Below are positions 28,661-58,404 of a DNA stretch of 64,000 nucleotides, piece after piece. This DNA comes from a virus: IMG/VR virus record IMGVR_UViG_3300050821_001428, positions 1 through 64,000 of that record; one strand, given 5' to 3'. Within the stretch, counting starts at the first letter, position 1. Every line of letters starts with the position of its first letter. The notes beneath the pieces are model-generated. The model was not told the origin of the DNA, searched no databases, and saw only the letters and a list, made by a program, of their open reading frames with translations. The position numbers were made by a program, and so were the translations under genes.

Positions 28661-29986
28661 TTAATATCTTTGATCACGCCAATAAGCGTGGCCATTTACA
28701 TATGTAGCGTGCTCTAACCTAAATTCACCCGTAGGCCATATACAAGCGGTTGTCCAACCTTGCTGCCAATCGGGTGCTACGGTATATGAAGGAAAACGGC
28801 GACCCGTTTCATCTATCTTACTATCAATCTTACACATACACCCGGCTTCTACACCCGTCAGCGTACTAACATTTCGGTTAATATCATGTTTACTGTGATA
28901 AATCATTGATTGACGATGTGTATGCCCGATAATAATACTATATCCTAATTGATCTAGTGTCTTAAGGGCACTACTACCAGATCCCTTAGCAGCTATCCAA
29001 CCATGACGCACTGCTAACTTATCTGATAAGAGAACCTGGGCATCTTCGTATGAGCCGTTGGTGGTAACAAGTTCTACGCCTAGTTCATCAAGGCGCATTA
29101 AATGCGTAAGTGCGTGAATAAATTCAGGCTCGGGATTCTTCGCATCTATAACACGGGACAGGTTATTGACAAATGGTGCCTTGTCAATAATATATCGCTG
29201 AATCCGAATATCGTGATTGCCGAGAAGGAACTGCCAAATAGTATCTGGAGATGCCATTATATAGTCACGGAAAACTTCATATCCGCTTTGCAGACACTCT
29301 TGCACTGAGGCGACATTATCTGGGTCCATAGGATGGCGTGATACATCCGGGAAATCTAGTAAATCACCTAAGACTACTCCGCGAGAGGGTCGATTATACC
29401 GTAACCACTCACAGAATGTGTCGTGTAGCGCCTTGTCATGAAAGGGGGCTTGCTGATCGCCACATACAACCACTAATTCTTGGCCCTGATCTTGCTTAGG
29501 AATTAATAATGATCGTATCGGCTTCCAACCCTCTGATCGTACTGGGTTTAAGACGAGATCAGGATGTTTACGCTTAGCTGTAAACTTTGCCTGATGGTTA
29601 GTGATCTTATTACCTGTCTTAGTGCGACCCTCCCATTCATTGACGGTGATCTGATCTATTACCCAATCTGCCGGGTCAAGACCCCGTTCGCGTAACATGG
29701 TATCTGGATCGTCTAGCACTATAGGGGCATCAGATAGTGCTAGACGCGGCTTGGTTGTACATTGGGCATCGTCGCCATTGATAGTTGTAGATGACTTCTC
29801 TACACCGGGGATCTGCACATTATGACGTTTGCGAAAACGTCTAACAGCAGATTCTCCTATCAATACATCATATTCTTTAGATATAGTACGCGCGATACCT
29901 GTATTGAATTCGCCCGCTTGAATTAATTCAAGGATACGTGAGTATATCGGGTCTTTATCCAGCGGACTCTGGTTTTGTTGATTCAT
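28661..29986 (-). CDS. metallophosphoesterase with an N-terminal HTH
   Basis: GDQQ, GDLLD, GNHD, HG and GHTH calcineurin-like motifs. Confidence 0.85.
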   Translation of the reverse strand: MNQQNQSPLDKDPIYSRILELIQAGEFNTGIARTISKEYDVLIGESAVRRFRKRHNVQIPGVEKSSTTINGDDAQCTTKPRLALSDAPIVLDDPDTMLRERGLDPADWVIDQITVNEWEGRTKTGNKITNHQAKFTAKRKHPDLVLNPVRSEGWKPIRSLLIPKQDQGQELVVVCGDQQAPFHDKALHDTFCEWLRYNRPSRGVVLGDLLDFPDVSRHPMDPDNVASVQECLQSGYEVFRDYIMASPDTIWQFLLGNHDIRIQRYIIDKAPFVNNLSRVIDAKNPEPEFIHALTHLMRLDELGVELVTTNGSYEDAQVLLSDKLAVRHGWIAAKGSGSSALKTLDQLGYSIIIGHTHRQSMIYHSKHDINRNVSTLTGVEAGCMCKIDSKIDETGRRFPSYTVAPDWQQGWTTACIWPTGEFRLEHATYVNGHAYWRDQRY

Positions 29987-32909
29987 CTAGATTTTCTAAA
30001 GTTTCTGATAAAGGATCTATTAGTGAATATTTCTTATGTGCTTCGATTGGTAAGTTGAGTCTCTTTTTGTGTGACTCAATAATGATATTTTCGCCATTAT
30101 GTTTAGCGATCTTCTGATTAGCCTTTAAAATCCATGTTTCTGGATCATCCGGATCTTCATTATTTAGTATAGCAGAGAGTTTAGGTTCTTCATCCTCTGG
30201 TTCCTCATAGAACCAACCGTACTTATCGATTGATTCCTTGATTACTATAGCACGATCTTGCATTTCTTTAGGCCAATTCTCCTGAGGGATAGGTGAATAA
30301 ATATCATTCACCGATGCCGTGTTGTAAGTAAGACCAGGGCGACGTTCATTTGAAATCTGTGGGGCATTAGTACCTCCACCCGCTGGACCACCAGGGGCCA
30401 TTGGAGGGGCACCACCACCAGGAGGCGCAGTACCGGGACCGGGGCCAAGGCCACTAGGGGGCGCTGGCATCTGTGATCCAAAGTCACTCTCGGGTCCACC
30501 ACCGGGTGGTGGACCACCCATACCTGCGCCGCCAGCGCCACCCATATCTCCACCGCCCGCACCGGGGTCACCCATTGCCGGGCCGGTACCACCTTGAAGC
30601 ACAGACTCTACCTCGTATTTGAGGTCCATTGGTACCGGTAAACCTTGAATAACAAGTGCGGTATATGTATCCATCTTGGCCCTCTGCTGGGCGATGGTCT
30701 TCTTCATAATGTCACGGTTATATTCATTGATATAATCATCGCCCTTCCATGTGACACCAATCATTAGCTTATCATCGGGAATTGGTAACCCGGCTGAGCG
30801 TAGACCCATTAAGAACTGACGTTCGGTAGCCTCATCTCTAAGATCGAAGGTATTATGAGTTACCAGACCCTCAGTAATATGAGTGTGATCACCACTAATA
30901 CCTAAACTCCATGTAGGCTCTGCTTGATGTAGTTGAATATCATTAATTTCATCCCAAGAGGGATCAAGGCGTGCATCTCGTTCACTAATTGTTTGATTAA
31001 ATATTGGCAGTTGTGTACCAACCCTAATCTTATCTTCTTCGCATAAATCAGAAGCCTCTACCCAACCGCGTTGGGTTAAGAATGGATGCTCCGCAGTTGT
31101 TCGAATATTACGACCCGATTTGGTATAAACCCCATATGTTGTTTGAAGACCATTATCATAAGAATGAGTAACCTTGGCTAATGTTGCTCTATCATTCGCA
31201 ACATCCCATCCCCAAACATCGTCTCCTACTTCTAATGTCTCTGTTGCTACAGGACCATTTGGAGTCGATACGCGACTACCATACGCTAGGCATTCCATTT
31301 TCAAGTCTGGCACTAGTAACTTATGTTCCTTAGTGATTAGCTTATTACCATCGTCATCATATGAAACAACGTTCTCATAAATAGGTATTCTACTCTGCCC
31401 TTTGCGTTCATATGCATAGTGACCTTGAGCCTCAGCAACTACCGAAGCGCGGAACTTGAAGTGATCTTTTAATACCTTCTGGAATGTACGAAGCATCTGA
31501 TTCATAAATTCAGCTTGTAATGCAGAAGAAGCATAAGGCTGTGAATTAGAACCGGCAGATAGTAATGATGGATTAACTCCGAATACCTCCATCAAACGAC
31601 GCTCGATACGATCAAAGTCATCGCCTAGACGTGGCATCTGTTCGCGTCCGAAGACCGAAGACATATCAATACCGAAGTGGTGAACCATAACGCGAAAGTC
31701 TGATGCCATAGCGATATCGATATCATCACGAACGGCATTTAGCTCATCAGGACCAGGAATCCATGGTGGTAGGCCGTCGCCCATATCCATGATTCCAAGC
31801 TTAGCTAGCAAGAATGGAGAATACAAACGTTCCGCGATAGCATCTTGAGAGGCTAGGAGTTTTTCTTCATGAAGAAGGGTACGTAGGCCACGAAGTAAGA
31901 TAGGCGTACCGTGATCATCCCAGTCATTGAGCTTATTTCCTACTTGCGTAAGCATGACTGGTGATATAGGGATATGTTCACCCTTTAGTAGATACGGAAT
32001 CAAGTCCGAATAGTTCTGTTGCAACATGTACCATTCACGCGCTGGCGACTTGGTTTGCGCAATCCTACGAAGATAGTCAGGAGGGACAATCTTTAGCTGT
32101 TTAGAATCAAGCAACGGGAAGTTATCAATTACAACATCCTCGGGGTTAATTAACTCTTCGTGCTCCCATACACCAAGGTCTTCATCAAATGACCCTAATG
32201 GGAAGGCTTCACCTACAAGCCAGAATTCACGACCTAGTGCGACTAAGAAATCTTCGTATTTTAATTGATTAAGAAATAAGTCTTCATAAATAGCAGTCAG
32301 GGCCGGGTCTGATGATTCCAAATGCATTCCCACTAGTGGGAATCTAGTGAAGATATCAATAAGAATAGGGACCAGATAGTGGGTAGCATAATACAGGCGT
32401 AACCACTTATGTAGCTTATGACGATGGCCCTCATCAGCTACATTCCAAGGTAGTCCTGATAAGTCCCAATATTCTAACGGATCATAGAAACGTGGGATAG
32501 CATTATAGACATCACCACCCATGGCAGATCCGCCACCACCAAGCATTGAGGTTTTAGGATTAAATCCCTGAAACCAGCGTTCGTCCTGAGATGACTTACG
32601 GGCTGAACCTGTTCTGGAAGAACCCCGAGGATTACGGCTTTTTCCCATAAGACTCGTTAGGGCCTGATTCTGAGCCGTAATCTTCATAGCCTCCTTGTCA
32701 TAATTCTCTGACGTGACGGGACGACCTAGACTTGCAGATATTCCAGCGATATCCTTAGATGCAGCTTCTTTAAGCATCTGGTTGGTTTGCATACCATCGC
32801 CATACGCAGAAAGCGCACGATAAGGGTTGTAGGGCAAACCCGGCACTTGATCACGGACAGCTTGAAGCTCCGAGATGAAAGTGTCTTTATCTGAAATATT
32901 TTTAGCCAT
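29955..32909 (-). CDS. portal protein with a mini-intein
   Basis: IDIFTRFPL, GEAFP and HGTPILLRGLRTL...AQ-like DAIAERL; sits near TerL; Gly/Pro-rich tail. Confidence 0.75.
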   Translation of the reverse strand: MAKNISDKDTFISELQAVRDQVPGLPYNPYRALSAYGDGMQTNQMLKEAASKDIAGISASLGRPVTSENYDKEAMKITAQNQALTSLMGKSRNPRGSSRTGSARKSSQDERWFQGFNPKTSMLGGGGSAMGGDVYNAIPRFYDPLEYWDLSGLPWNVADEGHRHKLHKWLRLYYATHYLVPILIDIFTRFPLVGMHLESSDPALTAIYEDLFLNQLKYEDFLVALGREFWLVGEAFPLGSFDEDLGVWEHEELINPEDVVIDNFPLLDSKQLKIVPPDYLRRIAQTKSPAREWYMLQQNYSDLIPYLLKGEHIPISPVMLTQVGNKLNDWDDHGTPILLRGLRTLLHEEKLLASQDAIAERLYSPFLLAKLGIMDMGDGLPPWIPGPDELNAVRDDIDIAMASDFRVMVHHFGIDMSSVFGREQMPRLGDDFDRIERRLMEVFGVNPSLLSAGSNSQPYASSALQAEFMNQMLRTFQKVLKDHFKFRASVVAEAQGHYAYERKGQSRIPIYENVVSYDDDGNKLITKEHKLLVPDLKMECLAYGSRVSTPNGPVATETLEVGDDVWGWDVANDRATLAKVTHSYDNGLQTTYGVYTKSGRNIRTTAEHPFLTQRGWVEASDLCEEDKIRVGTQLPIFNQTISERDARLDPSWDEINDIQLHQAEPTWSLGISGDHTHITEGLVTHNTFDLRDEATERQFLMGLRSAGLPIPDDKLMIGVTWKGDDYINEYNRDIMKKTIAQQRAKMDTYTALVIQGLPVPMDLKYEVESVLQGGTGPAMGDPGAGGGDMGGAGGAGMGGPPPGGGPESDFGSQMPAPPSGLGPGPGTAPPGGGAPPMAPGGPAGGGTNAPQISNERRPGLTYNTASVNDIYSPIPQENWPKEMQDRAIVIKESIDKYGWFYEEPEDEEPKLSAILNNEDPDDPETWILKANQKIAKHNGENIIIESHKKRLNLPIEAHKKYSLIDPLSETLENLDESTKPESAG
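30852..31292 (-). mobile_element. mini-intein (147 aa, no endonuclease)
   Basis: CLAYGS start, TAEHPF block B, VTHN|T end. Confidence 0.9.
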
Positions 32910-34930: not shown

Positions 34931-37900
34931 TTAGCGTCTACCGCGCGAATTTATTCGATTCCCGCCACCGTTCCTGCGCATACCAATAGATCCTCGCGCC
35001 GGATTGCCGCCAGATCGTTCGGCGCGGGAGCGTTCTATATTACCTTGTGAATAATAATAGCTACCATCAGTGTTCATAGGCATTGGGGCACCATTTGGAT
35101 AATTATTTTGTCCCATACCATACCCTCCAGGTGCGCCGCCGACCACTGATGCTTGAGATAACCGCTCACGCATAGTCTGAATCTGTAGATTACCTAGTAG
35201 TGCCCATACTACATCGATTACAGCATCTGCCATATCCTTGGTTTGTACCGGGCCGAGGTCTTGTTTGTCTACGCGGGGGAATTTACCACTAGTTTGAACC
35301 TGCTGTAAGAACTTTAATTCTTCTTTCGAAGTATAACTGTCGATTTCCTCATCATTTGGAGCATGTACTAATCCTTGATACAAGGCTGTTTTAAATACCT
35401 CGCATTTCTTCCAGTTTAACTCCGCAGTTGTAGGTCGCACATAGACCTGACAAGTAATATTTTCTTTATGTAACCTATCTTGAATATCCTGTAATGGGGA
35501 CGAGCTATTATGACTAATGATACCATTAGCTACAAATAGTTCTGGGCCGGGTACAACAAGATCAAAACAATTTGCCGTAGACTCTACAATTGAATCAATA
35601 CGGAAATATTGTAAATCTCCTTCTCTATTCAACTTGGATCTTTTACCAACATCCTTACGACGGCTAATTTGATCTACAATGGCAGATAGTTTATGATTTT
35701 TTCTATCAGAGCAGAAACCAATCTTTTTATGGAATTCTAGAATGTCTAAACCGAACATTTTGACACGCCATTCTTGCTGAGGGGTGCCCTTATAAGTGCT
35801 TGCCGCCCCATTCCAAATAGTCGAATATATTCCTAAATTTAACAATAACTGTTGAATACCCTTGGCTAATGCAGCGCTTCTGGTACTACATCCCACAATT
35901 TCATCATTGTGTCTGGAATTAACAGCCCAACCATCACCTTCAAAATAAGCCTTTAAAAAGTTTACGATTACTGATTCTGGGGATTGAAAAATAGCCCAGG
36001 GCACCTCTTTGATATAGGAGTCACCAAAGCATCCTAACTGCGTGAACATTTTAGAGATATATCCCGATGCAGCAATTGATCCATACATAGTGTCAATCTG
36101 TCCGCCTTGAGGTGTTGTATTATGCTTTAGTTCATACCTATATGACCAATCGCCCCCAAAGGTTCTCTCTGCCGCATCCTTATACATATCTAAATAGGTT
36201 TTATCTGAGTTACTAAAACATATATTGGATTCATTAACATAACCTTCGGCTGTTAGCGCCCCCAGTATAAATCCAATATCTTCATTTAATTGTGTGGGGT
36301 ACAAACAACCTTTACGCCTAGAATGCTGTCTCTTCCAATCCAAAACAGCATTATAAGCTAATTTTTCGGTATCAAATCTTCCAATTGTGATTTGATGGTT
36401 GTTTTTGGAGACATTCGCAACCCAATGTTGTTTCGTCTCTGGATTATAACTGACACCTACATATTTAGAACTACCAGAGCCAGTTGGGTGATATTTTTTA
36501 ATATCAACATAGTTTGTTGCTGTCACGTTGTTTTTGCGCACAGCAACATAATCACCCTTTTCAATTTCAGCAATTTCTAACCATTCCCACTTATTGGATT
36601 TATGCCAAGGCTTTATTTTGTTCTTACGAACCCAAAGTCTATGGTCAGTGGTTCCTTCTATACTGTATCCAGGTTTGGTTGTAAGGATTCTCGTTGGCAC
36701 ATGACCTCTGTTGTAAATCTCAGTGGCAGTCACTATCCCTTCCATCGTTTGTACTGGTATATTAATAGTTTTGGTTTTACCTACAGGTAATTCGCCAGCT
36801 AGCTCTTTCAGTGTTTTATTACCACCAATGGTTGGAATCAAAGTGTTTTCATTGAGACATTGGTGTTGGTCCATGGTAATTTCGAATGGATGGAAAATCT
36901 TAGCATAAGTAATAATTTCATCAATAATAGGTGCCCAACGGATAACCTTATTTGGCTGCTTAGAAGGATTCCATCGTTTTATTAAATCGAATACGCAGTG
37001 TTCATTATCTAGACCGGTGACCGGATCGGGCAGGTATTCAATGTGTCCAATGGCAAATCCAAATCCAGCGGTGGTAGAAGAAGGGTCCAAGTGGAATTTA
37101 TAACGATGAAAGCCTGTGTTAATACCGACACCATAGTTGGTAGAAAATGGTTCGTATCCCAACACCATGTCTCCATTCGGCTGGCGCACCAAGCCTATTG
37201 GACGACCATTATACATGCGATCTACCATTGATGGATTTAACCAAGCTTCAGAGATTTCAGCAAATTTACCACGACGCTCAACCTTGTAGGTTTCGGGATC
37301 GGCTGCTTCGGAAGCTCGCGCCTGAATAATAGCGGCCTTATCCTCTTGGCTGAATAACGGACGATCCTGTTCATCCACCTCATCGGGATTCCAATCAGGA
37401 GACACTGTAACCATCTTACCGAGCATCTTGCCTCTGGTACGTGGTTTATATTGTGATTTATAGTAACGATATCCTTCAAACAAAGCCCATGATGGTCCTT
37501 GGAATACAAGACGACGAGGATCACCATTGATTCTTTGATCTGCCAGGTCACTATCGTCGCCCTGAAGCTCGATAGTCATTAGGTCTACAGGCCGGGTCTG
37601 ATCAAATGGCATTAGTCCTAATTCATATAGATCGTGAAACATTCCAACCTTAGAATAAGGTGATGAATTAATGAATAATAATCCATCGGTACCGAACTGA
37701 TCGAGCGATGGACCAGCCGCATTATATACCTCACCAGCCGATGACTTGCTTTCACCAGCGATCATGTGGGCAGCCTCATCGATCGTGACACAATTATGCG
37801 TAATAATCATATCATCAGTAACATATAATCCATTCACATTTGAAACCGTAATACATTGTTGTACGGCCTCTCCTATATATTCAACGTTAACAAGAGCACG

Positions 37901-39547
37901 TCGGCGTCTACTATAAAATGCATAAGGTTTTTGACGAAGTAATTTACGTTGACATCTAAACAAAGGATATTGTCTTAAATCACTAATGCATATCTCGTAA
38001 ATTGGCAGAGGGGACCTAATTACCTTATCTTCTACATATGAAATATTAGGACTAATAGGACGAGAATGTATAGTCGCGTATCCTCCTAGACTACGTACTA
38101 ATTCAACTGTATCTAGCGCTAGTTGATAGGACGTTGTACCTAATTTAATTGCTGAATCTTTTGAGATAGTACCGTCTGTATCTAAAAGTCCCTGGAGTAT
38201 AGATAATCTCTCATCAAATGATCCTCGTAAATATTGTTCCGGTATGAATTTATACTGTCCCGAATGTTTAGATAAACCTAATTGGTGAATAGCATTTCGC
38301 ACCTGATTGAGATGCGTAGGTCCGGTTTTTTTATTAGATTTAACAATTCTGAATTGAATAAGTTCATTAGGATTCTGGATTAGTTCGTGACCATCGGGTA
38401 AAGCCTTACGTACTTCTTCGACAATATCGTTATCTAAATTATAAAAAGCTACACCCGATCTTCCTGAGAAGCTTCCATCTCCTAATAAAGCTCCCAATAA
38501 ATAGGGATCTAGCGGTAACTTCTGAGTATCATACTGTATCACTGGTGCTTGGGGAAGTGCCCACTTATAGTAATCGGGCTTATTACCCCCAGCTTTTTTG
38601 GTTAAATCATTTGCAAATTCTAAAATGGTTTTGGTCTTACCTATATGTGTTTTACGAGGTTGATACAATGTCCATAAATGATCTGGCCCACATGTTGTGG
38701 AGGACCCGTCACTCATAGTTACACGATAGGTGGGTTGTATACCTCGCGGATGTATGTGGGTCACATGTTGTGATTTTCCATCAGAACCTATGATTTCATC
38801 ACCTATTTGTATCTCGCCCATAGTGGTCCAACCATATGGGGTAAGAATTTTGGCATCTAGAGGTTGGGCCATCGTTGCCGATCCACGTAACGTACCGGCA
38901 TTAGCTGCTAGAGCATTACCTCTAAGTCGCGCCTGATCTTTTTTAAAAGTCTGTCCTCTAGCTTTGGCTGATGAAATCTCCCTAATATCGGCCGGTGTCA
39001 TAATACGAATCTCTGTTTCAAGAGAATCAGCGATATATGGTTGGAAAGCTTTATTAGACTCGATACGAGCAACCATGTCGGCGTACTGGAACTTCTTTGC
39101 CTGGGATTCCGAACCAGCAATACATGAGAAATATATTTCCTTCTTGCGGTCAATACCGTAGTATTCACCAGGATTACCAAGCTGGAGCGTTGTCCAGAAT
39201 TTATATGCCATTGAAGTGCCGGTGGTAAACCCCTTAGATGCACGTCGCCCGACCGCCATCTGAATCTCACGGAAATGAGGATATCCATGAGATCGTAGAT
39301 AATCTCTACGTTCGCGGATATTAGGGGAGATAGTTATCTCTGATCCGTTGCGTCCCCCGTTGATCCACTCGGTTAGCACATCCTCTTCCGCGCCTGTCAT
39401 TTCCTCTAAAAAGATTAACTTCAAAAGGACTAGCTGACGAGGATAAAGCGCGATTCCGGCATAATCATCAGACTCAGTGAATTCTTCAATACCAACCCTT
39501 TTGGGCGCTAGTTGATCAATGTTATCTAGTAAACCTAATACACTCAT
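34931..39547 (-). CDS. terL: terminase large subunit with two inteins
   Basis: Walker A GRRASKG, Walker B CVTIDE, SSP coupling motif, nuclease HLDP and KDMADA. Confidence 0.9.
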   Translation of the reverse strand: MSVLGLLDNIDQLAPKRVGIEEFTESDDYAGIALYPRQLVLLKLIFLEEMTGAEEDVLTEWINGGRNGSEITISPNIRERRDYLRSHGYPHFREIQMAVGRRASKGFTTGTSMAYKFWTTLQLGNPGEYYGIDRKKEIYFSCIAGSESQAKKFQYADMVARIESNKAFQPYIADSLETEIRIMTPADIREISSAKARGQTFKKDQARLRGNALAANAGTLRGSATMAQPLDAKILTPYGWTTMGEIQIGDEIIGSDGKSQHVTHIHPRGIQPTYRVTMSDGSSTTCGPDHLWTLYQPRKTHIGKTKTILEFANDLTKKAGGNKPDYYKWALPQAPVIQYDTQKLPLDPYLLGALLGDGSFSGRSGVAFYNLDNDIVEEVRKALPDGHELIQNPNELIQFRIVKSNKKTGPTHLNQVRNAIHQLGLSKHSGQYKFIPEQYLRGSFDERLSILQGLLDTDGTISKDSAIKLGTTSYQLALDTVELVRSLGGYATIHSRPISPNISYVEDKVIRSPLPIYEICISDLRQYPLFRCQRKLLRQKPYAFYSRRRRALVNVEYIGEAVQQCITVSNVNGLYVTDDMIITHNCVTIDEAAHMIAGESKSSAGEVYNAAGPSLDQFGTDGLLFINSSPYSKVGMFHDLYELGLMPFDQTRPVDLMTIELQGDDSDLADQRINGDPRRLVFQGPSWALFEGYRYYKSQYKPRTRGKMLGKMVTVSPDWNPDEVDEQDRPLFSQEDKAAIIQARASEAADPETYKVERRGKFAEISEAWLNPSMVDRMYNGRPIGLVRQPNGDMVLGYEPFSTNYGVGINTGFHRYKFHLDPSSTTAGFGFAIGHIEYLPDPVTGLDNEHCVFDLIKRWNPSKQPNKVIRWAPIIDEIITYAKIFHPFEITMDQHQCLNENTLIPTIGGNKTLKELAGELPVGKTKTINIPVQTMEGIVTATEIYNRGHVPTRILTTKPGYSIEGTTDHRLWVRKNKIKPWHKSNKWEWLEIAEIEKGDYVAVRKNNVTATNYVDIKKYHPTGSGSSKYVGVSYNPETKQHWVANVSKNNHQITIGRFDTEKLAYNAVLDWKRQHSRRKGCLYPTQLNEDIGFILGALTAEGYVNESNICFSNSDKTYLDMYKDAAERTFGGDWSYRYELKHNTTPQGGQIDTMYGSIAASGYISKMFTQLGCFGDSYIKEVPWAIFQSPESVIVNFLKAYFEGDGWAVNSRHNDEIVGCSTRSAALAKGIQQLLLNLGIYSTIWNGAASTYKGTPQQEWRVKMFGLDILEFHKKIGFCSDRKNHKLSAIVDQISRRKDVGKRSKLNREGDLQYFRIDSIVESTANCFDLVVPGPELFVANGIISHNSSSPLQDIQDRLHKENITCQVYVRPTTAELNWKKCEVFKTALYQGLVHAPNDEEIDSYTSKEELKFLQQVQTSGKFPRVDKQDLGPVQTKDMADAVIDVVWALLGNLQIQTMRERLSQASVVGGAPGGYGMGQNNYPNGAPMPMNTDGSYYYSQGNIERSRAERSGGNPARGSIGMRRNGGGNRINSRGRR
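35507..36859 (-). mobile_element. TerL intein 2 (451 aa; LAGLIDADG plus embedded AP2 domain)
   Basis: Q|CLNENT start, ILGALTAEG and FLKAYFEGDG, SHN|S end. Confidence 0.92.
37793..38869 (-). mobile_element. TerL intein 1, class 3 (Ala1, WCT triplet), LAGLIDADG (359 aa)
   Basis: M|AQPLDAKILTP start; DHLW, QCITV and ITHN|C; LLGALLGDG and LQGLLDTDG. Confidence 0.9.
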
Positions 39548-49170: not shown

Positions 49171-49203
49171 ACAGATTGTCCATAAAACCTATGATCCGTT
49201 AAG

Positions 49204-49293
49204 CAGAGGGTAGGGGATTCGAACCCCTGATACACGTCTAAGGTGTATGACGGTTTAGCAAACCGTTCTCGTCAGCCACTTGAGTAACCCTCT
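49204..49293 (-). tRNA. tRNA-Ser(GCT)
   Basis: ACGGT-TTGCTAA-ACCGT. Confidence 0.9.
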
Positions 49294-49383
49294 GAGACTA
49301 CAGTTCGATGACCACTGGTACACAATTAAGGTACGTCAATTTAGCAAACTGATGCAATCGGCCTCTCTGCCAACCTTCCAATA

Positions 49384-50046
49384 CTATACTTCAATCATTA
49401 CCGGTGAATTAAGCGGTTGGTAACGTGCATCCATTATAGCAACATTCCAAACTTCGGTTTCGCCTAATTCGTAATGGCCGAATCCTTCATGAATATGCCC
49501 ACAAATGACATGCTTAGGTTTAATATCCCTAATCATCATGTCACACTGTGCCGATCCCACATGAGGATGTAGTGCGCTGATAACCTTGTCCGCTACTCCA
49601 TAAGGAGGTCCGTGGGTTATAACTACATCCGTATCGGTATCTACGGCCTTATACTTCTCGCTTAGAGTAGCATTATCTCCGTAAAACGCCCAACCCTTTA
49701 GATTGGGAACCCATGGAATACCATAGAATCGAATATCATCTACAATGATAGCCTCATCCTCAAGATAAGTCCATCCTACATCGTAGGTAGTGTCCTTTGC
49801 ATCACCAAATACTGCGTATCTATTCTCCAGAGCGAAATCATGGTTACCAGCGATTACCAATCGGTGTTTTGCTGGCATTTTCATGGTCCAGTCTGAAAAT
49901 TCATTTCTAATCCAACTAGTACAACGATCGGTATCACGATCGTACCGAATCGGACTAATATCCCCCGCTACCACCAGAATATCGGATTCTGGAACCGCTA
50001 CAGGCAAATAGCCATGTAGATCCGAAAGAGCACAAATTGTTGTCAT
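49384..50046 (-). CDS. metallophosphoesterase
   Basis: SDLHG, AGDI, AGNHD, THGPP and CGHIHE. Confidence 0.9.
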   Translation of the reverse strand: MTTICALSDLHGYLPVAVPESDILVVAGDISPIRYDRDTDRCTSWIRNEFSDWTMKMPAKHRLVIAGNHDFALENRYAVFGDAKDTTYDVGWTYLEDEAIIVDDIRFYGIPWVPNLKGWAFYGDNATLSEKYKAVDTDTDVVITHGPPYGVADKVISALHPHVGSAQCDMMIRDIKPKHVICGHIHEGFGHYELGETEVWNVAIMDARYQPLNSPVMIEV

Positions 50047-50057
50047 TTTTCCTTAAG

Positions 50058-50427
50058 TGGACCTGCTCGCATCGAAGCGAGGTGGCCCGTAATCGTCATC
50101 AGAGATTTAGTATAGCATCTTTCTAGGACAAGAGTTACTTCAAGGACAAGCAGAGCTTGTCTCCACCAACTTAGTCTACATCTTAGGGGCGACTAGTAAC
50201 CCCGATTCCTATGCTTCTGTTGACAGGTGCATAGACCCCGTTCTGGCTATTTAAGCAAGAACAGAAAGAACTTCACTTGCACGGATCTCGCTCTTTGCAG
50301 AGAAAGCGCCAGCAGGGATGTTCATAGGACGATATGATTCGCCAGTTAATTGTTTTGCGAGATTTAGGTGTCTCAAAACCGATGCAATTCTTAATTCGTT
50401 TTTACGAGATCGAAACCTTTCAGGCCC
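50058..50427 (-). ncRNA. ssrA: tmRNA
   Basis: 5' GGGCCTGAAAGGTTTCGA pairs with 3' CAGGTCC-A giving G3:U70; T-arm CTCGC-TTCGAT-GCGAG; internal tag ORF ending VLA-stop at 50251. Confidence 0.85.
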
Positions 50428-50462
50428 GTTGAAGAGAGGCAGCTTGTAATTGTAATTTGCTA

Positions 50463-50882
50463 TCATTTTTTACGTTGGTCGATACGTCTACACTCTTTGC
50501 ATTTATGTCTAGGTCTAAATGACCCATCTTTATTTGGCTCAGTATGTAAACTAAAATTATCCACAGGCAAAAATTGCTGATGCCCATGACACCACCACAT
50601 CCCTTCGGGATAATTGTTTTTATGTGGTGCTTGATTTCTTTTAATATTACAATTAAGATGTGAAAATGCAATGTTATCTAAATCCCAAAATAGATCATCA
50701 GGATTTTGAAGCCAAGGGATTTTGTGTTCAACAGATAATTCCTGAGCACACTCAATCGGTTTTTCACATACAAAACAAATATCTCTTCCGCTCTGTTGTA
50801 CAAGTTGGAAAAATATTTGTTTTCTGAGTCGAGCATAGGCAGTTGTAGTATACATACCTAACATGCTACGATAGCGTTCCAA
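50463..50882 (-). CDS. HNH endonuclease-like protein
   Basis: CFVC...SVEHKIPW...NIAFSH..CN plus a C-terminal zinc finger; start uncertain. Confidence 0.7.
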   Translation of the reverse strand: MERYRSMLGMYTTTAYARLRKQIFFQLVQQSGRDICFVCEKPIECAQELSVEHKIPWLQNPDDLFWDLDNIAFSHLNCNIKRNQAPHKNNYPEGMWWCHGHQQFLPVDNFSLHTEPNKDGSFRPRHKCKECRRIDQRKK

Positions 50883-50935
50883 AGATTTAGATTCTTATTT
50901 CATCATCTATTATATCTATGGACTATTACATTTCT

Positions 50936-51006
50936 GTAACTATAACGGTCCTAAGTAGAAATCCTACCTACACGGTAATAGCGTAACATAACTTCGAACG
51001 CTGCCC
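50936..51006 (+). other. 23S rRNA helix 69-70-like sequence fragment
   Basis: exact GTAACTATAACGGTCCTAAG, then colinear CCTACCTACACG and AATAGCGTAAC (compare CCGACCTGCACG and AATGGCGTAAC). Confidence 0.75.
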
Positions 51007-51024
51007 ATTTTTGCTACCTCTCAG

Positions 51025-51096
51025 TAGACAGAGAGGGATTCGAACCCTCAACCTCCCGCATGTCAAGCGGGTGCGCTACCATTGCGCTATCCGTCT
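51025..51096 (-). tRNA. tRNA-Val(GAC)
   Basis: CCCGC-TTGACAT-GCGGG. Confidence 0.9.
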
Positions 51097-51112
51097 GATT
51101 ACTACTTGTAAG

Positions 51113-51185
51113 TACCCAATCTGTGAATCGAACACAGTCAATAGGGGCATGTAAAGCCCTTGCCGTCCCATCTGGCTCATCGGGT
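51113..51185 (-). tRNA. tRNA-Val(TAC)
   Basis: AGGGC-TTTACAT-GCCCC. Confidence 0.8.
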
Positions 51186-51222
51186 ATGGTGGGCAAGCAA
51201 GCTTTTGAACTACACTTGCCCT

Positions 51223-51273
51223 TGGCCGCATCCGGGAGGATTTCAACCTCGCCTACAGAACTAAATCGGATGC
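51223..51273 (-). ncRNA. anticodon-less tRNA-like minihelix
   Basis: GCATCCG/CGGATGC acceptor-like stem, GAGG-TTGAAAT-CCTC T-arm, 3' GGCCA. Confidence 0.45.
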
Positions 51274-51305
51274 TTTATTGAGGGTGGGTGGTCCCCCATC
51301 CTCAG

Positions 51306-51377
51306 CGGTTCTAGAGAGAATTGAACTCTCGTATGAGGCTTGACAAGCCCCCGTAATATCCACTATACGATAGAACC
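51306..51377 (-). tRNA. tRNA-Asp(GTC)
   Basis: GGGGC-TTGTCAA-GCCTC; G73. Confidence 0.9.
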
Positions 51378-51386
51378 TAATTGTAA

Positions 51387-51457
51387 CACCCCATCAAGGT
51401 AACGCTCCCTGGTCTTCGGGTTTGGAAGCCGACGTTTTGCTATTAAACTAATGAGGT
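51387..51457 (-). tRNA. tRNA-Trp(CCA), atypical T-loop
   Basis: loop TTCCAAA; T-loop AGCGTTA; acceptor ACCTCAT/ATGGGGT. Confidence 0.7.
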
Positions 51458-51663
51458 TTTAAGAGGCCAAGACCATAGGTAATCTACCTTCCAAGCACTA
51501 CCTGGGTCTTAATGACCTACAGTAATAATAAACACTGATCGCACCCCTGAGTAGCAGTCAATAAGGAATTGTCCACATAGTGCCAGCTATATAGGTTTCA
51601 GAGAATACAGCCCTGGCAGGCTAATCTCTTGCGATGGCGAGTTATGTACTGGTCGCCACAGTA

Positions 51664-51715
51664 AGACTGCATTCGGATTTGAGCCGAAATGCGCTACCCA
51701 TCGTAGCATGCAGCC
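51664..51715 (-). ncRNA. tRNA-like element lacking the anticodon arm
   Basis: GGCTGCA/TGCAGTC acceptor; GCTAC-GATGG-GTAGC arm; TTCGG-CTCAAAT-CCGAA T-arm. Confidence 0.5.
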
Positions 51716-51839
51716 GAAAAATAAGTAGGCATCCTCTGTTCTAGACCAGAGCCTTTTGGTTATTCTTGAGCGCCTATGTCAAGGTTTTCCATATCTAGGA
51801 CTTTAAACCGACAGAGCTTTTCCCTTGAACCTACTTATA

Positions 51840-51911
51840 AGCCAACTATGAGAGTCGAACTCATTCTTTCTACTTACGGGGTAGACGTGCTTCCGTTGGC
51901 ACTCAGTTGGC
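51840..51911 (-). tRNA. tRNA-Thr(CGT)
   Basis: TCTAC-CCCGTAA-GTAGA. Confidence 0.8.
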
Positions 51912-51920
51912 GGCGGGCTA

Positions 51921-51993
51921 TCAGAGATGAGAGATTTGAACTCCCGATAAATGCTCCCAAAGCACTTGTGTTACCAGACTACACTAATCTCTG
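51921..51993 (-). tRNA. tRNA-Pro(TGG)
   Basis: AGTGC-TTTGGGA-GCATT; C1-G72. Confidence 0.85.
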
Positions 51994-52226
51994 TTTTGGT
52001 CCCAATGTATCGCCCTATTGGCTTGACGACTCCTAGAACATTGGGACCATAGACCCATACCGAAAGGTATAAAATAGGGCCTATTTCGTTATATAGGTGC
52101 TATATAAGGTTGGGTGGAGAATTACCTCACTCGCTTACTCGCTACTTGTTCGCGACAGGCAAAACCCCAACTTTATACGTGAATTTCGTTGGCAACCTGT
52201 TACTTTCACTTTCTTCTAATGACCCA

Positions 52227-52279
52227 TGGAAGATAAGGGAGTCGAACCCCTTCGCACACTAATTAATATCTTAGTCCCC
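52227..52279 (-). pseudogene. Ala-like tRNA remnant/minihelix without an anticodon arm
   Basis: 5' GGGG...AAGGGGTTCGACTCCCTT-ATCTTCCA. Confidence 0.45.
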
Positions 52280-52294
52280 ATCATAAATAGATAG

Positions 52295-52371
52295 TGGAGG
52301 ATATCGGATTCGAACCGATGCAAAAACCCACGGTGCAAACGTAGTGCTCTCCCAAACTGAGCTAATCCCCC
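52295..52371 (-). tRNA. tRNA-Ala(TGC)
   Basis: CTACG-TTTGCAC-CGTGG; G3:U70. Confidence 0.9.
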
Positions 52372-52388
52372 AAGAAGGATAATAAAAA

Positions 52389-53120
52389 ATGAAAATTAAA
52401 ACTGTTGAAGTTGTTTGTGATGGTTGTGGTCAACTTTTTGACCGATATATAGGCGAAGTAAAACGTTCTCAACGCAAACATATGAAAATGTATTGCGCGC
52501 AATCTTGCACAGCAAGATATCGTGTCCGACCCATTACTATACACGAACCTAATGTAATCTGCGCCCATTGTAATAAAGCATTTTACAAAAACCCCTCATC
52601 TTTGAGTAATTCAAAATCTGGCTTATTCTTCTGTTGTCGGGAGCACAAAGATATATCGCAACGTATAGGTAATTTACACGCGATACGGGAGATAATGCCC
52701 AATCATTATGGAACAGATCCCAATAAAAATATTAATTATAGAAAACTTGCTTTCGATCATTTACCTAATGAATGTGAAATTTGTCAATGGAAGGAATATC
52801 CCAATGTTTTAATTGTTCATCACAAAGATCGAAACAGGAATAATAATGTCCTCGAAAATTTACAAATTATTTGTCCAACACATCATGATGTAGACCATTA
52901 TTTACAAAAGGATGGACGCTTTACAACAGGACGCCGTCATACCGGAATCAATCGCTCTCAAATCAAATGGCCACCCATTCCTTGGCTTTTAGAACGTTCT
53001 AATCAAATTGGAGTCCGTCAGACCGCGCTTGAGATTAATGTATCAGATACTGGTTTACGTCACTATTTACGTAGAAATGGTATTGACCCACCAGATTTTC
53101 GAGGTAGAAAACATACATAA
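52389..53120 (+). CDS. HNH homing endonuclease with zinc ribbons and a C-terminal HTH
   Basis: CEIC...VHHKDRNRNNN.LENLQIICPTHH; the only plus-strand gene in the array; RBS AAGGA. Confidence 0.85.
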   Translation: MKIKTVEVVCDGCGQLFDRYIGEVKRSQRKHMKMYCAQSCTARYRVRPITIHEPNVICAHCNKAFYKNPSSLSNSKSGLFFCCREHKDISQRIGNLHAIREIMPNHYGTDPNKNINYRKLAFDHLPNECEICQWKEYPNVLIVHHKDRNRNNNVLENLQIICPTHHDVDHYLQKDGRFTTGRRHTGINRSQIKWPPIPWLLERSNQIGVRQTALEINVSDTGLRHYLRRNGIDPPDFRGRKHT

Positions 53121-53164
53121 TCCTGCGTGCAAAGCAGGTGTGTTCCCATTAGCACTAATCCCCC
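53121..53164 (-). pseudogene. 5' two-thirds of a tRNA-Ala(TGC) interrupted by the HNH gene
   Basis: GGGGGAT...CCTGC-TTTGCAC-GCAGG ends at the HNH stop codon. Confidence 0.75.
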
Positions 53165-55389: not shown

Positions 55390-58300
55390 TTATAAGATTT
55401 CGCATCCTCCATTAGCACTACACGCTAATTCTTGTGAGCCTGTCGTATAATCCTCACTCTCGTACAAGGTTAGCAGGTTCCAATCAATCTTGGATGGCAT
55501 CTCGTTTACTAGTTCAAGGTATGTATCCCGATCAATCTCTTGATAAGGTGCCTGTTGGTAACTACCATTATCAAATGGTAGGAAACTAACACCAGACATC
55601 TTATCAAAGTGGTTATATACAAAGACACCTACCTCGTCCCACTCGTTATCACGTACATATACGGTGATTGATGGCTTATGCTCGCACCAATGCTCCGCAT
55701 AAGCCAACCATAGTTTCAACTGATCTATAGCTGTAATATCATTACGGAGAATAGCACGATCTGGTGACTTGATAGGATATGAAAATACCATAGTCTCATC
55801 TGGCTTCATTACATCGTCTTCAGTTGGGATACCTTGCATGTATAGGAACTGGGAGATAGGATCAATCTTATTACCGCGATTGGTACGAATATAGTATTCG
55901 GAGTAGCGTGGGTGAATGCCCGATGCTGCATCCACTAGCTGTGATACGGTCCCACTGGGTTTACAACAGGTGATTGCGGTTGATTGGTTGATGCCAAGTA
56001 ACCTGGCCCATTTTTCGTTCTCTTCGATCGCGCATTCCTGTAGATAACCCAGACGCTCCGCTAGATCAGGATCATTATGATCTGATAGCAATGGGCAATC
56101 CATGATCCCTGTAATAGATACACCGAGTAAGCGTTCTTCTTCACAGTTCTCGCGCCACTTGTCCGACAAGTAACGGAAATCTGTAAATGTACTCTGAATA
56201 GTTCCGACTATGGTAGCTAATCTAACCTTCTGTTCTAGGGTTTGATTAGTATCGTCATGCCTTGCTACTACTTCGGACAGATTACACATCTGTCTATCTC
56301 TCAAAATGATTTCTGAATTGTGAGCAAAAATACCATTGGCATCAAAGGCATGAACATCCGATACTTCAGCGTCCCACACTTCGCCCACACGTACAAACTC
56401 AAATGACTCCATTGCGGATTCAAAGCGCTTCTCATAAAAGGTCGTAGTAGCCACAATATGCTTTAGCTGAGCCATCTTCTTAAGATGGGAGAACCCCACG
56501 CGCTGGGCATATACCTCGATATCACTTGAAGAAATTACCAACCGCCAACTAGCCTTGGTTGGGTATTCGCGTGATCCCCCCCGACCATCTGGCAATACCG
56601 AGACACCCTTGTCCTTTGCTCGATAAATACGCGATTTGATACCTAGACGCAGTAACATACGCTGTATAGCCTTAAGATCGGTCAGATCAGACTGGCTTAA
56701 GCGAATAGACCATCCCTTAGTTGCATTACCTTCGATATGACCATCAGCATCGAACAGGCCACGCAAGAATCCTTCATGAAAAGCCGAAGAAGTAAGCTCT
56801 ACGTCCTCATTGATATGCTTATTACCCCAATCCATACCAAATTTCTGAGGTAGTCTACCGATAGACATGCGCCTATAGAGTCTGCAATCTCCGCAGCCAT
56901 TCCAATCCGAACGATGCGGTAATTCATCACCAGCTATACGAGCCGTCTCCGCGATACCCACGCTGCCTTGATCGTTGTGCCAGGTCTTCACCTCGCCTCT
57001 AGCCCCGGTGCGAGGGTTTATGAAATTACCATCGCCTAAGAATAGCCCCAATAGATACCCTTCATTCCATGTACCATCCCCTCTCCATGAGAGCATCCCA
57101 TGATTCTGAATAAGCACAAGGTCGTCCGATGTTAGATGCTGTGCTTCCACCCAACCACGATTAGAGGTCTTGATGCGATGTTCTGGTGTAAGTTCAAGTT
57201 CGTAACCAGCCTTCAGAGTAAGGCGATAGATTTCTCCTTCACCGCTAACCCATGACCCATGCGGGGCATCGTATTCTCTGCCGGTGACCAGCGCCTTGAA
57301 TGGAATATCTAGCAAAGAATCGATACGACGAGGACCATCTATAGTCATGATAATAGTATCTGGAGCAAGACAGCATGGATTAGTCCCGAAGGCATAATTG
57401 GCATCGCGCCTAAAATTGCGACGTGCTTGTTCTTGCATACCTGTACGATTTATGATACCACGTTCGCCGGATTGAGAATCCCGCAACGATTGCCATTCCC
57501 GAGCGAATATATCAAGAGCCGGGCGACCATCCCATACCGCACTATTATTAGCTAGACGATATTCCGGATGGTCTATCCACCATTCTCCCTGCTTAGCATC
57601 GCGCATATCTAGATCATCCGGATCAGATAGCGAGATGAGAGCAGCACGACGGACACCGCCTACTACTACGATATCACCAATCTTGCACATGATACCGTGA
57701 CATTCAAGAGAAGTTAATTTGCGCCCTTGAGCGTCCTTGAAGATGCTAACAACGTATTGAAATAAATCCGTTAGTGGTTCTGGACCCGATGCGCTACCTC
57801 CGAATGTTTTAAGCCTAGAACCCGCAGGACGAACGAGGGATACATCCCAGGTAGGTATGCCTCCCTTATATAACTCACTGATCAATTGACGTAGGGCTGT
57901 GGCCCAACCAATCTTAGAATCCTCTACGACGATAGTCAAATTAGAATTCTGTAGGTAAGGAATTTCTGGCAATCGGTTTGTGTAACCTCTCTCAACCGAG
58001 AATCCCACCCCGGTACCGCAGCACAGGATATATAGGGCTTCATCAAAGGCTTCAATGCGATTAATAGCCAGGTAGGAACAATTATACCCAGCGACATTAT
58101 CTCTTTCAAGGGCTGGTCCCGCCGTTGTCATAGCCCGCATAGAGGGCATGATCTCTAAACCCAAAATTTTCCCTGTAATGCTTTCGCTAACGTCCTCCCA
58201 AAGACTTGGATCAATCCCTAATTCACTTATCTTACGTGTAAGCTGATTTACATAACGATCTACAGTTTCGTTCCAATGCTCTCTACGTTCTAAATCATAG

Positions 58301-58404
58301 TCCCAGCGAGCATACTTGGTCTTATGGATTTGCTGCTGATATAAGGTCGGTAAAACATGCTGATCTACATCATTTTTCTCTAAATCTATACTACTTACTT
58401 CCAT
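55390..58404 (-). CDS. nrdJ: class II (B12-dependent) ribonucleotide reductase with an intein
   Basis: MPSMRA, YNCSY, GTGVGFS, VGGVRRAALI, GTNPC|SEI, KPSGTVSQL and a C-terminal CxxxxC. Confidence 0.92.
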   Translation of the reverse strand: MEVSSIDLEKNDVDQHVLPTLYQQQIHKTKYARWDYDLERREHWNETVDRYVNQLTRKISELGIDPSLWEDVSESITGKILGLEIMPSMRAMTTAGPALERDNVAGYNCSYLAINRIEAFDEALYILCCGTGVGFSVERGYTNRLPEIPYLQNSNLTIVVEDSKIGWATALRQLISELYKGGIPTWDVSLVRPAGSRLKTFGGSASGPEPLTDLFQYVVSIFKDAQGRKLTSLECHGIMCKIGDIVVVGGVRRAALISLSDPDDLDMRDAKQGEWWIDHPEYRLANNSAVWDGRPALDIFAREWQSLRDSQSGERGIINRTGMQEQARRNFRRDANYAFGTNPCCLAPDTIIMTIDGPRRIDSLLDIPFKALVTGREYDAPHGSWVSGEGEIYRLTLKAGYELELTPEHRIKTSNRGWVEAQHLTSDDLVLIQNHGMLSWRGDGTWNEGYLLGLFLGDGNFINPRTGARGEVKTWHNDQGSVGIAETARIAGDELPHRSDWNGCGDCRLYRRMSIGRLPQKFGMDWGNKHINEDVELTSSAFHEGFLRGLFDADGHIEGNATKGWSIRLSQSDLTDLKAIQRMLLRLGIKSRIYRAKDKGVSVLPDGRGGSREYPTKASWRLVISSSDIEVYAQRVGFSHLKKMAQLKHIVATTTFYEKRFESAMESFEFVRVGEVWDAEVSDVHAFDANGIFAHNSEIILRDRQMCNLSEVVARHDDTNQTLEQKVRLATIVGTIQSTFTDFRYLSDKWRENCEEERLLGVSITGIMDCPLLSDHNDPDLAERLGYLQECAIEENEKWARLLGINQSTAITCCKPSGTVSQLVDAASGIHPRYSEYYIRTNRGNKIDPISQFLYMQGIPTEDDVMKPDETMVFSYPIKSPDRAILRNDITAIDQLKLWLAYAEHWCEHKPSITVYVRDNEWDEVGVFVYNHFDKMSGVSFLPFDNGSYQQAPYQEIDRDTYLELVNEMPSKIDWNLLTLYESEDYTTGSQELACSANGGCEIL
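56317..57372 (-). mobile_element. RNR intein with LAGLIDADG endonuclease (352 aa)
   Basis: NPC|CLAPDT start; LLGLFLGDG and FLRGLFDADG; AHN|S end; inserted right after the thiyl-radical Cys. Confidence 0.93.

Follow-up and report, generated by a model that had tools for sequence, protein, structure and literature searches.

How does a piece of 23S ribosomal RNA sequence come to lie between the tRNA genes of a phage, and does it do anything there? The question is raised by a short spacer in the stretch of 64,000 nt analysed here (the window), the opening 64 kb of a virus record that is 144,267 nt long. Between 41.9 and 54.2 kb the minus strand of the window carries 30 tRNA genes in an array, with several nuclease genes scattered among them. 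The original prediction had recognized in one spacer of this array a sequence from helices 69 and 70 (H69, H70) of 23S rRNA, antisense to array transcription and placed between tRNA-Val and an HNH gene. Both the placement and the orientation were right: the fragment lies between tRNA-Val(gac) (51024-51096, minus strand) and the HNH gene (50463-50882, minus strand), and it reads in the rRNA sense on the plus strand while both neighbours are encoded on the minus strand. As explanations the prediction had offered an antisense RNA acting on ribosomes, a plus-strand decoy, or sequence captured together with the HNH gene. The fragment is real and unusual, with no parallel among 50,697 phage records, and our analysis points to a by-product of a known process.

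Direct reading and alignment established that positions 50936-50955 of the plus strand are an exact 20-mer of Escherichia coli 23S rRNA 1910-1929, as had been claimed. This is the standard numbering, which we take to be set by the landmark pseudouridines 1911, 1915 and 1917; the annotated E. coli 23S copy that we used numbers the same 20-mer as 1912-1931. The 20-mer spans the loop and the 3' strand of helix 69 and runs into the start of helix 70; it also takes in the left part of the I-CeuI site. It is identical in the 23S sequences of enterobacteria, Staphylococcus, Listeria, Acinetobacter and Paenibacillus. Local alignment showed that the homology continues colinearly from 50936 through 50987 (about 23S position 1978), 52 nt in total, with helix 71 skipped as originally described. 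The fragment had been drawn as far as 51006, but the 36 nt that follow 50987 have no 23S similarity (p = 0.30), and the sharp end of the homology at 50987 therefore places the earlier limit 19 nt too far. No 23S similarity was found either in the 53 nt upstream of 50936 (p = 0.98). The bases just before 50936 are TTTCT instead of the GGCC of 23S, and the 5' strand of the H69 stem is missing. A 5-bp inverted repeat, TTACA-TTTC-TGTAA at 50926-50939, straddles the HNH-proximal end of the piece; it could be due to chance or be a microhomology trace of the joining event.

The fragment carries four deletions (1, 2, 1 and 16 nt), one 2-nt insertion and two substitutions. The first deletion removes one G at G1929/1930, the second removes CG at 1934-35, the third a single T, and the 16-nt deletion takes out the helix-71 hairpin. 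The insertion is GT, and both substitutions are G-to-A. Direct TTCC repeats of the rRNA sequence bracket the 16-nt deletion, which is thus accounted for as a product of replication slippage, and a selective skipping of helix 71 is not needed. The two substitutions occur together in no natural 23S sequence among 185,579 species genomes, which indicates that the downstream part was truly mutated and not copied from an unusual donor. One match to the pattern of paired substitutions in these genomes was rejected as a non-rRNA, chance occurrence. The seven events all fall in the 49 nt of 23S beyond the 20-mer and none inside it, a distribution expected with p ~0.09 under uniform decay. A perfect 20-mer beside a decayed remainder is weakly unusual, a hint towards constraint and no evidence for it.

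When the whole 23S sequence was compared by blastn-short with the whole 144,267-nt phage genome, a check that the original prediction had itself proposed, the 20-mer was recovered with E = 3.4e-4 and nothing else in the genome fell below E = 1. The downstream part, scored without the 20-mer, exceeded 5000 of 5000 shuffles and all but 3 of 11,526 real genome segments, which bears out the colinear continuation. When both strands of the genome were scanned in windows of 80 nt by Smith-Waterman alignment with E. coli 23S, the fragment reached a score of 48, the background maximum being 30. It is the only 23S-like piece in this 144-kb phage, far beyond chance. The LSU rRNA model of Rfam (RF02541) found no match in the whole genome, nor in the region 49200-52400 at E up to 10, and no LSU rRNA, group I intron or other Rfam family was detected over the spacer. 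A 20-mer is short, and the whole window had been screened by eye, so that an accidental resemblance, or a chimeric assembly that had taken in host rRNA reads, had to be weighed. Such an artefact is extremely improbable. Taken together, the 20-mer (E = 3.4e-4) and the colinear extension scored independently of it (3 of 11,526 segments) are significant, and a chimera should show a long stretch that matches 23S perfectly, whereas the piece is 52 nt long and has seven lesions. Moreover, in a second assembly, an ENA contig of 60,458 nt, the genes are the same and their spacing across the spacer is again 1525 nt. The assembly chimera that the original prediction had named as its own refutation is thus unlikely, because the piece is short and decayed and the spacing is equal in both assemblies.

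The genome around the fragment is crowded with selfish elements. At least three further HNH-type genes lie in or near the tRNA array, and intein or Hint domains, some accompanied by LAGLIDADG or HNH domains, occur in four large genes (Table 1); so many protein-splicing elements are unusual in a single phage. Within the array, tRNA-Ala(TGC) is split into a 5' half at about 53121-53164 and a 3' half at about 52227-52255, both on the minus strand and both confirmed by alignment; the halves are separated by an HNH_3 gene on the plus strand (52389-53120) and by a complete tRNA-Ala of divergent sequence (52294-52371), a replacement copy that came in with this HNH gene. It follows that cassette junctions in this genome do leave gene debris. 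The split tRNA-Ala resembles the 23S case in that a nuclease cassette is flanked by a broken conserved RNA gene; it differs in that the broken gene is the phage's own target and is present as both halves, whereas the 23S piece is foreign and stands on one side. Elsewhere in the array, Rfam reports a tRNA at 51387-51457 (minus strand; 43.2 bits, cut-off 29) that ARAGORN does not, and which may be a 31st, atypical tRNA adjoining tRNA-Asp. Outside the array, the C-terminal half of a 954-aa ORF (21941-24805, minus strand) matches tRNA nucleotidyltransferase, the CCA-adding enzyme (phrog_2244, 4.7e-58); the approximately 500 N-terminal residues fused to it belong to no family that we could name.

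Table 1. Coordinates of the 23S-derived fragment, its neighbours in the tRNA array and the intein-bearing genes of the window.
Feature	Position	Strand	Basis or remark
Exact 20-nt 23S copy	50936..50955	+	alignment; blastn-short E = 3.4e-4 vs whole genome
Whole 23S-derived fragment (~1910-1978), decayed	50936..50987	+	alignment, segment statistics, window scan
36 nt between 23S piece and tRNA-Val, no source found	50988..51023		part of ~88-nt excess
tRNA-Val(gac), co-oriented tRNA upstream of HNH cassette	51024..51096	-	73 bits
Degenerate leader of HNH cassette, 29 nt	50907..50935	-	same length as tRNA-ATG gap of relatives
HNH homing-endonuclease gene (predicted), 133-139 aa	50463..50906	-	PF01844; phrog_23251
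Class II ribonucleotide reductase with intein/Hint	55390-58404	-	domain match
Terminase-like 1538-aa ORF with intein/Hint	34931-39547	-	domain match
984-aa ORF with intein/Hint	29955-32909	-	domain match
779-aa ORF with intein/Hint	18132-20471	-	domain match

Relatives of the phage or of the element were sought by megablast and blastn in 50,697 phage records, and none was found. A pattern specific to the junction had no match in viral contigs, metagenome contigs or 185,579 species genomes, and searches of viral contigs with the HNH, phosphoesterase and DnaB-like proteins of the phage returned no phage relative. The HNH protein has no paralogue in the phage genome. In a large protein collection it has 16 homologues of 39-63% identity, which are free-standing genes in phage-like contigs where the context is readable, and a profile scan of metagenome contigs yielded 80 loci of the family. 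According to ARAGORN, applied to 59 of these 80 loci and to locus L002, the HNH gene is co-oriented inside tRNA arrays in most of the 60. As a measure of spacing we took the number of nucleotides between the LGM motif, which is conserved close to the N-terminus of the protein, and the 3' end of the closest co-oriented tRNA upstream. This distance is 47-72 nt in 33 of the 50 loci that have a co-oriented upstream tRNA, with the first ATG 16-42 nt past the tRNA 3' end; it is shorter in 3 loci and longer in 14, at least two of which have an extra degenerate tRNA in the gap, as detected by Rfam. The HNH homing endonucleases of this family are therefore specialists for the site immediately behind a tRNA gene.

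The family shares the motif EHKxPW...LFWDLDNIAFSHxxCN, found in the window (50463-50935, minus strand) and in loci L005-L084. A AAYTTAATCATCAAC-like start is common to many of its leaders, and many open with AAYTTAATCATC. In many leaders inspection by eye revealed a GGAGG ribosome-binding site enclosed in a mini-hairpin of 3-4 bp, whose stem is changed on both sides between loci (GACC/GGTC, GTCT/AGAC, GTTC/GAAC, GCCC/GGGC); RNAalifold found no consensus structure for 18 family leaders. ARAGORN made tmRNA-like calls in two of the related loci, L009 and L063, the latter overlapping tRNAs and possibly false. For the window itself, the tmRNA that the original prediction had paired with the HNH gene was not confirmed: ARAGORN found none next to the gene. 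A weak Rfam alpha_tmRNA match at 50205-50353 (minus strand; 14.2 bits against a cut-off of 50, E = 0.17) overlaps a 71-aa ORF (50251-50466) accepted by the gene callers.

The HNH gene of the window is a recognizable member of this family with a damaged 5' end. The ORF matches PF01844 with 25.3 bits (cut-off 21.4) and phrog_23251 with 8.8e-22, and it keeps all 20 invariant columns of a 17-sequence family alignment. Its frame is family-like in length when read from an ATGATG at 50906, with an in-frame TAA at 50897-50895. The usable starts are TTG at 50882 or ATG at 50864, and gene callers give a protein of 133 aa. The leader (50907-50935) has no GGAGG mini-hairpin, and GGAGG precedes none of the candidate starts. 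The nuclease may thus be poorly expressed or decaying, though all its invariant residues are kept.

The spacing departs from that of the relatives as well. From tRNA-Val to the LGM motif the window has 159 nt, against 47-72 nt in the relatives, and from tRNA-Val to the family-like ATG 117 nt, against 16-42 nt. The excess at the junction, 88 nt, is made up of the 52-nt 23S piece and 36 nt of no found source. Between the end of the 23S piece and the family-like ATG there are exactly 29 nt, so that the piece ends at the place taken by the tRNA 3' end in the relatives. The finding is thus an insert of 88 nt on the upstream edge of a mobile cassette that is itself damaged at its 5' end. The 36-nt stretch (50988-51023) is no recognizable tRNA remnant, its best match to 551 tRNAs being no better than that of shuffles (p = 0.43), and the spacer that includes it has no repeat anywhere else in the phage genome. 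Neither a 23S-like stretch nor a window-like spacer was found in 83 related HNH loci (286 kb). The place of the fragment at the family junction and its absence from the HNH relatives are as directly observed as its homology and its boundaries. The suggestion that the sequence was captured with the HNH gene holds in this respect, since the fragment sits exactly at the upstream cassette boundary, and an HNH-linked origin is for this reason closest to the evidence. It fails in its specific form: a 23S piece carried as an rDNA-intron exon along with the gene had to be rejected, since the family resides in tRNA arrays and 0 of 83 loci have 23S sequence.

Does the fragment act as RNA? The orientation of the genes, and the absence of a terminator-like site between tRNA-Val and the HNH gene, indicate that the complement of the fragment is probably transcribed, with a tRNA 3' processing site upstream of it in the minus-strand transcript. 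This complement probably rides as a trailer of tRNA-Val or as the 5' untranslated region of the HNH mRNA, with none of the marks of a separate gene. To be a functional antisense RNA, it would be released by 3' processing of tRNA-Val, either as the 5' portion of the HNH mRNA or in the form of a small RNA, and its 20 perfect bases would pair with the loop and the 3' strand of H69 in free or nascent 23S rRNA, modulating ribosome assembly, subunit joining or recycling. Over 20 nt it is perfectly complementary to an rRNA segment that is universally conserved and functionally central, and it has the orientation of the tRNAs and the HNH gene; the predicted fold leaves roughly half of the 20-mer unpaired, and the 20-mer is intact where the rest has decayed (p ~0.09). 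Synthetic oligonucleotides directed against functional sites of rRNA can inhibit translation (PMC5774723). However, the minus-strand spacer folds no better than shuffled sequences (z = -1.4), and the region shows no promoter or terminator of its own above chance, with 8 promoter-like sites found and 7.5 expected. No copy exists in any other phage or metagenome searched, and with its 30 tRNAs and a CCA-adding enzyme the phage has made an investment that relies on functioning ribosomes. In mature ribosomes, moreover, H69 is base-paired and modified. Debris is also the better match to a place at the junction of a mobile element and to the decay of the 32 nt next to the 20-mer. Of the original antisense proposal the orientation and the open path of transcription thus stand, while a fold signal is missing, and we consider a functional antisense RNA improbable. 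We give the same low credence to the idea that the phage deliberately keeps the 20-nt H69 complement in the RNA released between tRNA-Val and the HNH gene, in order to bind 50S subunits that are free or nascent, for instance to stall host ribosome assembly or to tether its transcript to the 50S subunit. If true, it would be the first natural phage antisense RNA against rRNA, the remaining captured rDNA having been left to decay, and only then would the finding touch a major question, the direct control of the ribosome by a virus at the RNA level. A plus-strand transcript, for its part, could be imagined as a decoy that mimics H69/H70 and soaks up a host factor that cleaves or modifies rRNA. 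The sense orientation on the plus strand and a weak promoter-like site just upstream (50886-50913) would suit this role, and nucleases that cut H69 exist, such as Ribocin, which acts on eukaryotic ribosomes (PMC13189344). The promoter-like site, however, which is the only one on the plus strand, is within chance expectation, and the plus-strand spacer also folds no better than shuffles (z = -1.15). Since the 5' strand of the H69 stem (1906-1910, GGCC in the stem, which pairs with 1920-1924) is absent, the hairpin cannot form. Indeed, the predicted plus-strand fold contains no H69 and uses the 20-mer differently; in addition, helix 71 is deleted and helix 70 damaged. The decoy proposed in the original prediction is therefore disfavoured and very unlikely.

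The region of 23S concerned is itself a target of mobile elements, and the fragment could accordingly be a leftover flank, from a cassette that sat in a 23S rDNA site or copied from one, if the HNH enzyme, or a recent ancestor of it, recognises and cuts the H69-H71 region. In 23S rDNA, group I introns with LAGLIDADG enzymes are known at L1917, L1923 (I-CeuI), L1931 and L1951 (PMC1995217), in the same ~70 nt of 23S that the phage piece covers. The fragment abuts the cassette boundary, where the family has a neighbouring, presumably targeted, gene, and H69-H71 is a known hot spot of homing endonucleases, with introns at L1917, L1931 and L1951 (PMC1995217). The phage lesions lie near L1931 and across L1951: the first deviation, at G1929/1930, adjoins the L1931 site, and L1951 falls within the 16-nt deletion. 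By losing a few nucleotides beside the I-CeuI cleavage point, the phage copy would also have become immune to cutting. Yet all 83 related HNH loci are in tRNA arrays or phage-like contexts and none has 23S sequence, while the bacterial rDNA endonucleases at these sites are of the LAGLIDADG type and not HNH in all the cases listed (PMC1995217). In contrast to the rDNA introns, the phage locus has no ribozyme core or other group I intron signal (E up to 10, 49200-52400), and it has a single 23S 'exon' side, on the strand opposite to the nuclease ORF. No 23S sequence lies on the other side of the cassette, as an insertion in rDNA would leave, and the location is a phage tRNA array instead of an rRNA gene. 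Bringing host rDNA back into a lytic phage would in addition need two rare steps. We thus regard a relic of a former 23S target as unlikely.

The reading that we favour, and hold to be probably correct, is that the 52-nt stretch is a scrap of a bacterial 23S gene, foreign to the phage and now decaying and non-functional, which was captured at a junction of the homing-endonuclease cassette that is prone to breakage. Homing endonucleases cut genomes that are free of their cassette, and repair from a cassette-bearing genome drags flanking DNA along (PMC2330249, PMC2988022). The boundary of a cassette is thus a site of recurrent breakage and repair. In a phage tRNA cluster, flanking DNA is moved in this way by SegB of T4, a GIY-YIG enzyme whose gene, like the one described here, lies between tRNA genes (PMC2330249, review PMC2988022). 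SegB-type elements spread by cutting a cassette-free genome and are copied in with their flanks, their junctions being sites of gene conversion. The locus described here differs in its predicted HNH enzyme, whose family members begin immediately behind a tRNA 3' end, and in the foreign 23S piece at the junction, which is undescribed for SegB-type elements.

We infer how the fragment was captured, where it came from and that it has no function. The most plausible source would be either a host chromosome broken down in the course of infection or the genome of a donor; rDNA is multi-copy and would be available as loose pieces once the host chromosome is degraded. The family cassettes normally start directly after a tRNA 3' end, and this junction would be cut and repaired each time the element moves. 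A mis-repair there, by end joining or template switching, in the course of such a move or after a later break in the same place, may have picked up a loose rDNA piece; alternatively, the piece may have entered as donor flank hitch-hiking during gene conversion. It would have lodged at the upstream cassette junction together with the 36 nt of no found source. Small deletions would have accumulated later, including the slippage between the TTCC repeats that happens to remove helix 71, and the 5' end of the cassette, with its Shine-Dalgarno hairpin and first codons, would have degenerated as collateral damage. The helix 69 complement in the minus-strand transcript would then be a by-product.

Filler DNA captured at repaired double-strand breaks is known mainly from eukaryotic end joining. 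The phage junction resembles such cases in combining short, unrelated cellular DNA with small indels at a break-prone site; it differs in that our search of the literature for filler-DNA capture at phage homing junctions found no precedent, and to our knowledge the process is undocumented for phages. Among the 50,697 deposited phage records, no genuine phage genome has a comparable short 23S H69 piece; where the E. coli 23S H69 region occurs in deposited phages, it is as full-length 23S only, and the records are contaminants or hosts. Capture of this kind is accordingly a rare event. A rare capture that persists invites a functional reading, against the debris explanation.

If capture at the cassette junction is the correct reading, the locus documents, on a small scale but cleanly, how phage genomes are remodelled in nature by the traffic of homing endonucleases: a scrap of foreign rDNA frozen at the exact boundary of a cassette, a boundary that can be defined from dozens of relatives. 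It is also a caution against inferring function from striking matches to universally conserved rRNA. The HNH family specialised for tRNA 3' ends may be a more useful result than the 23S fragment, and it could help to explain the shuffling of tRNA arrays between phages.
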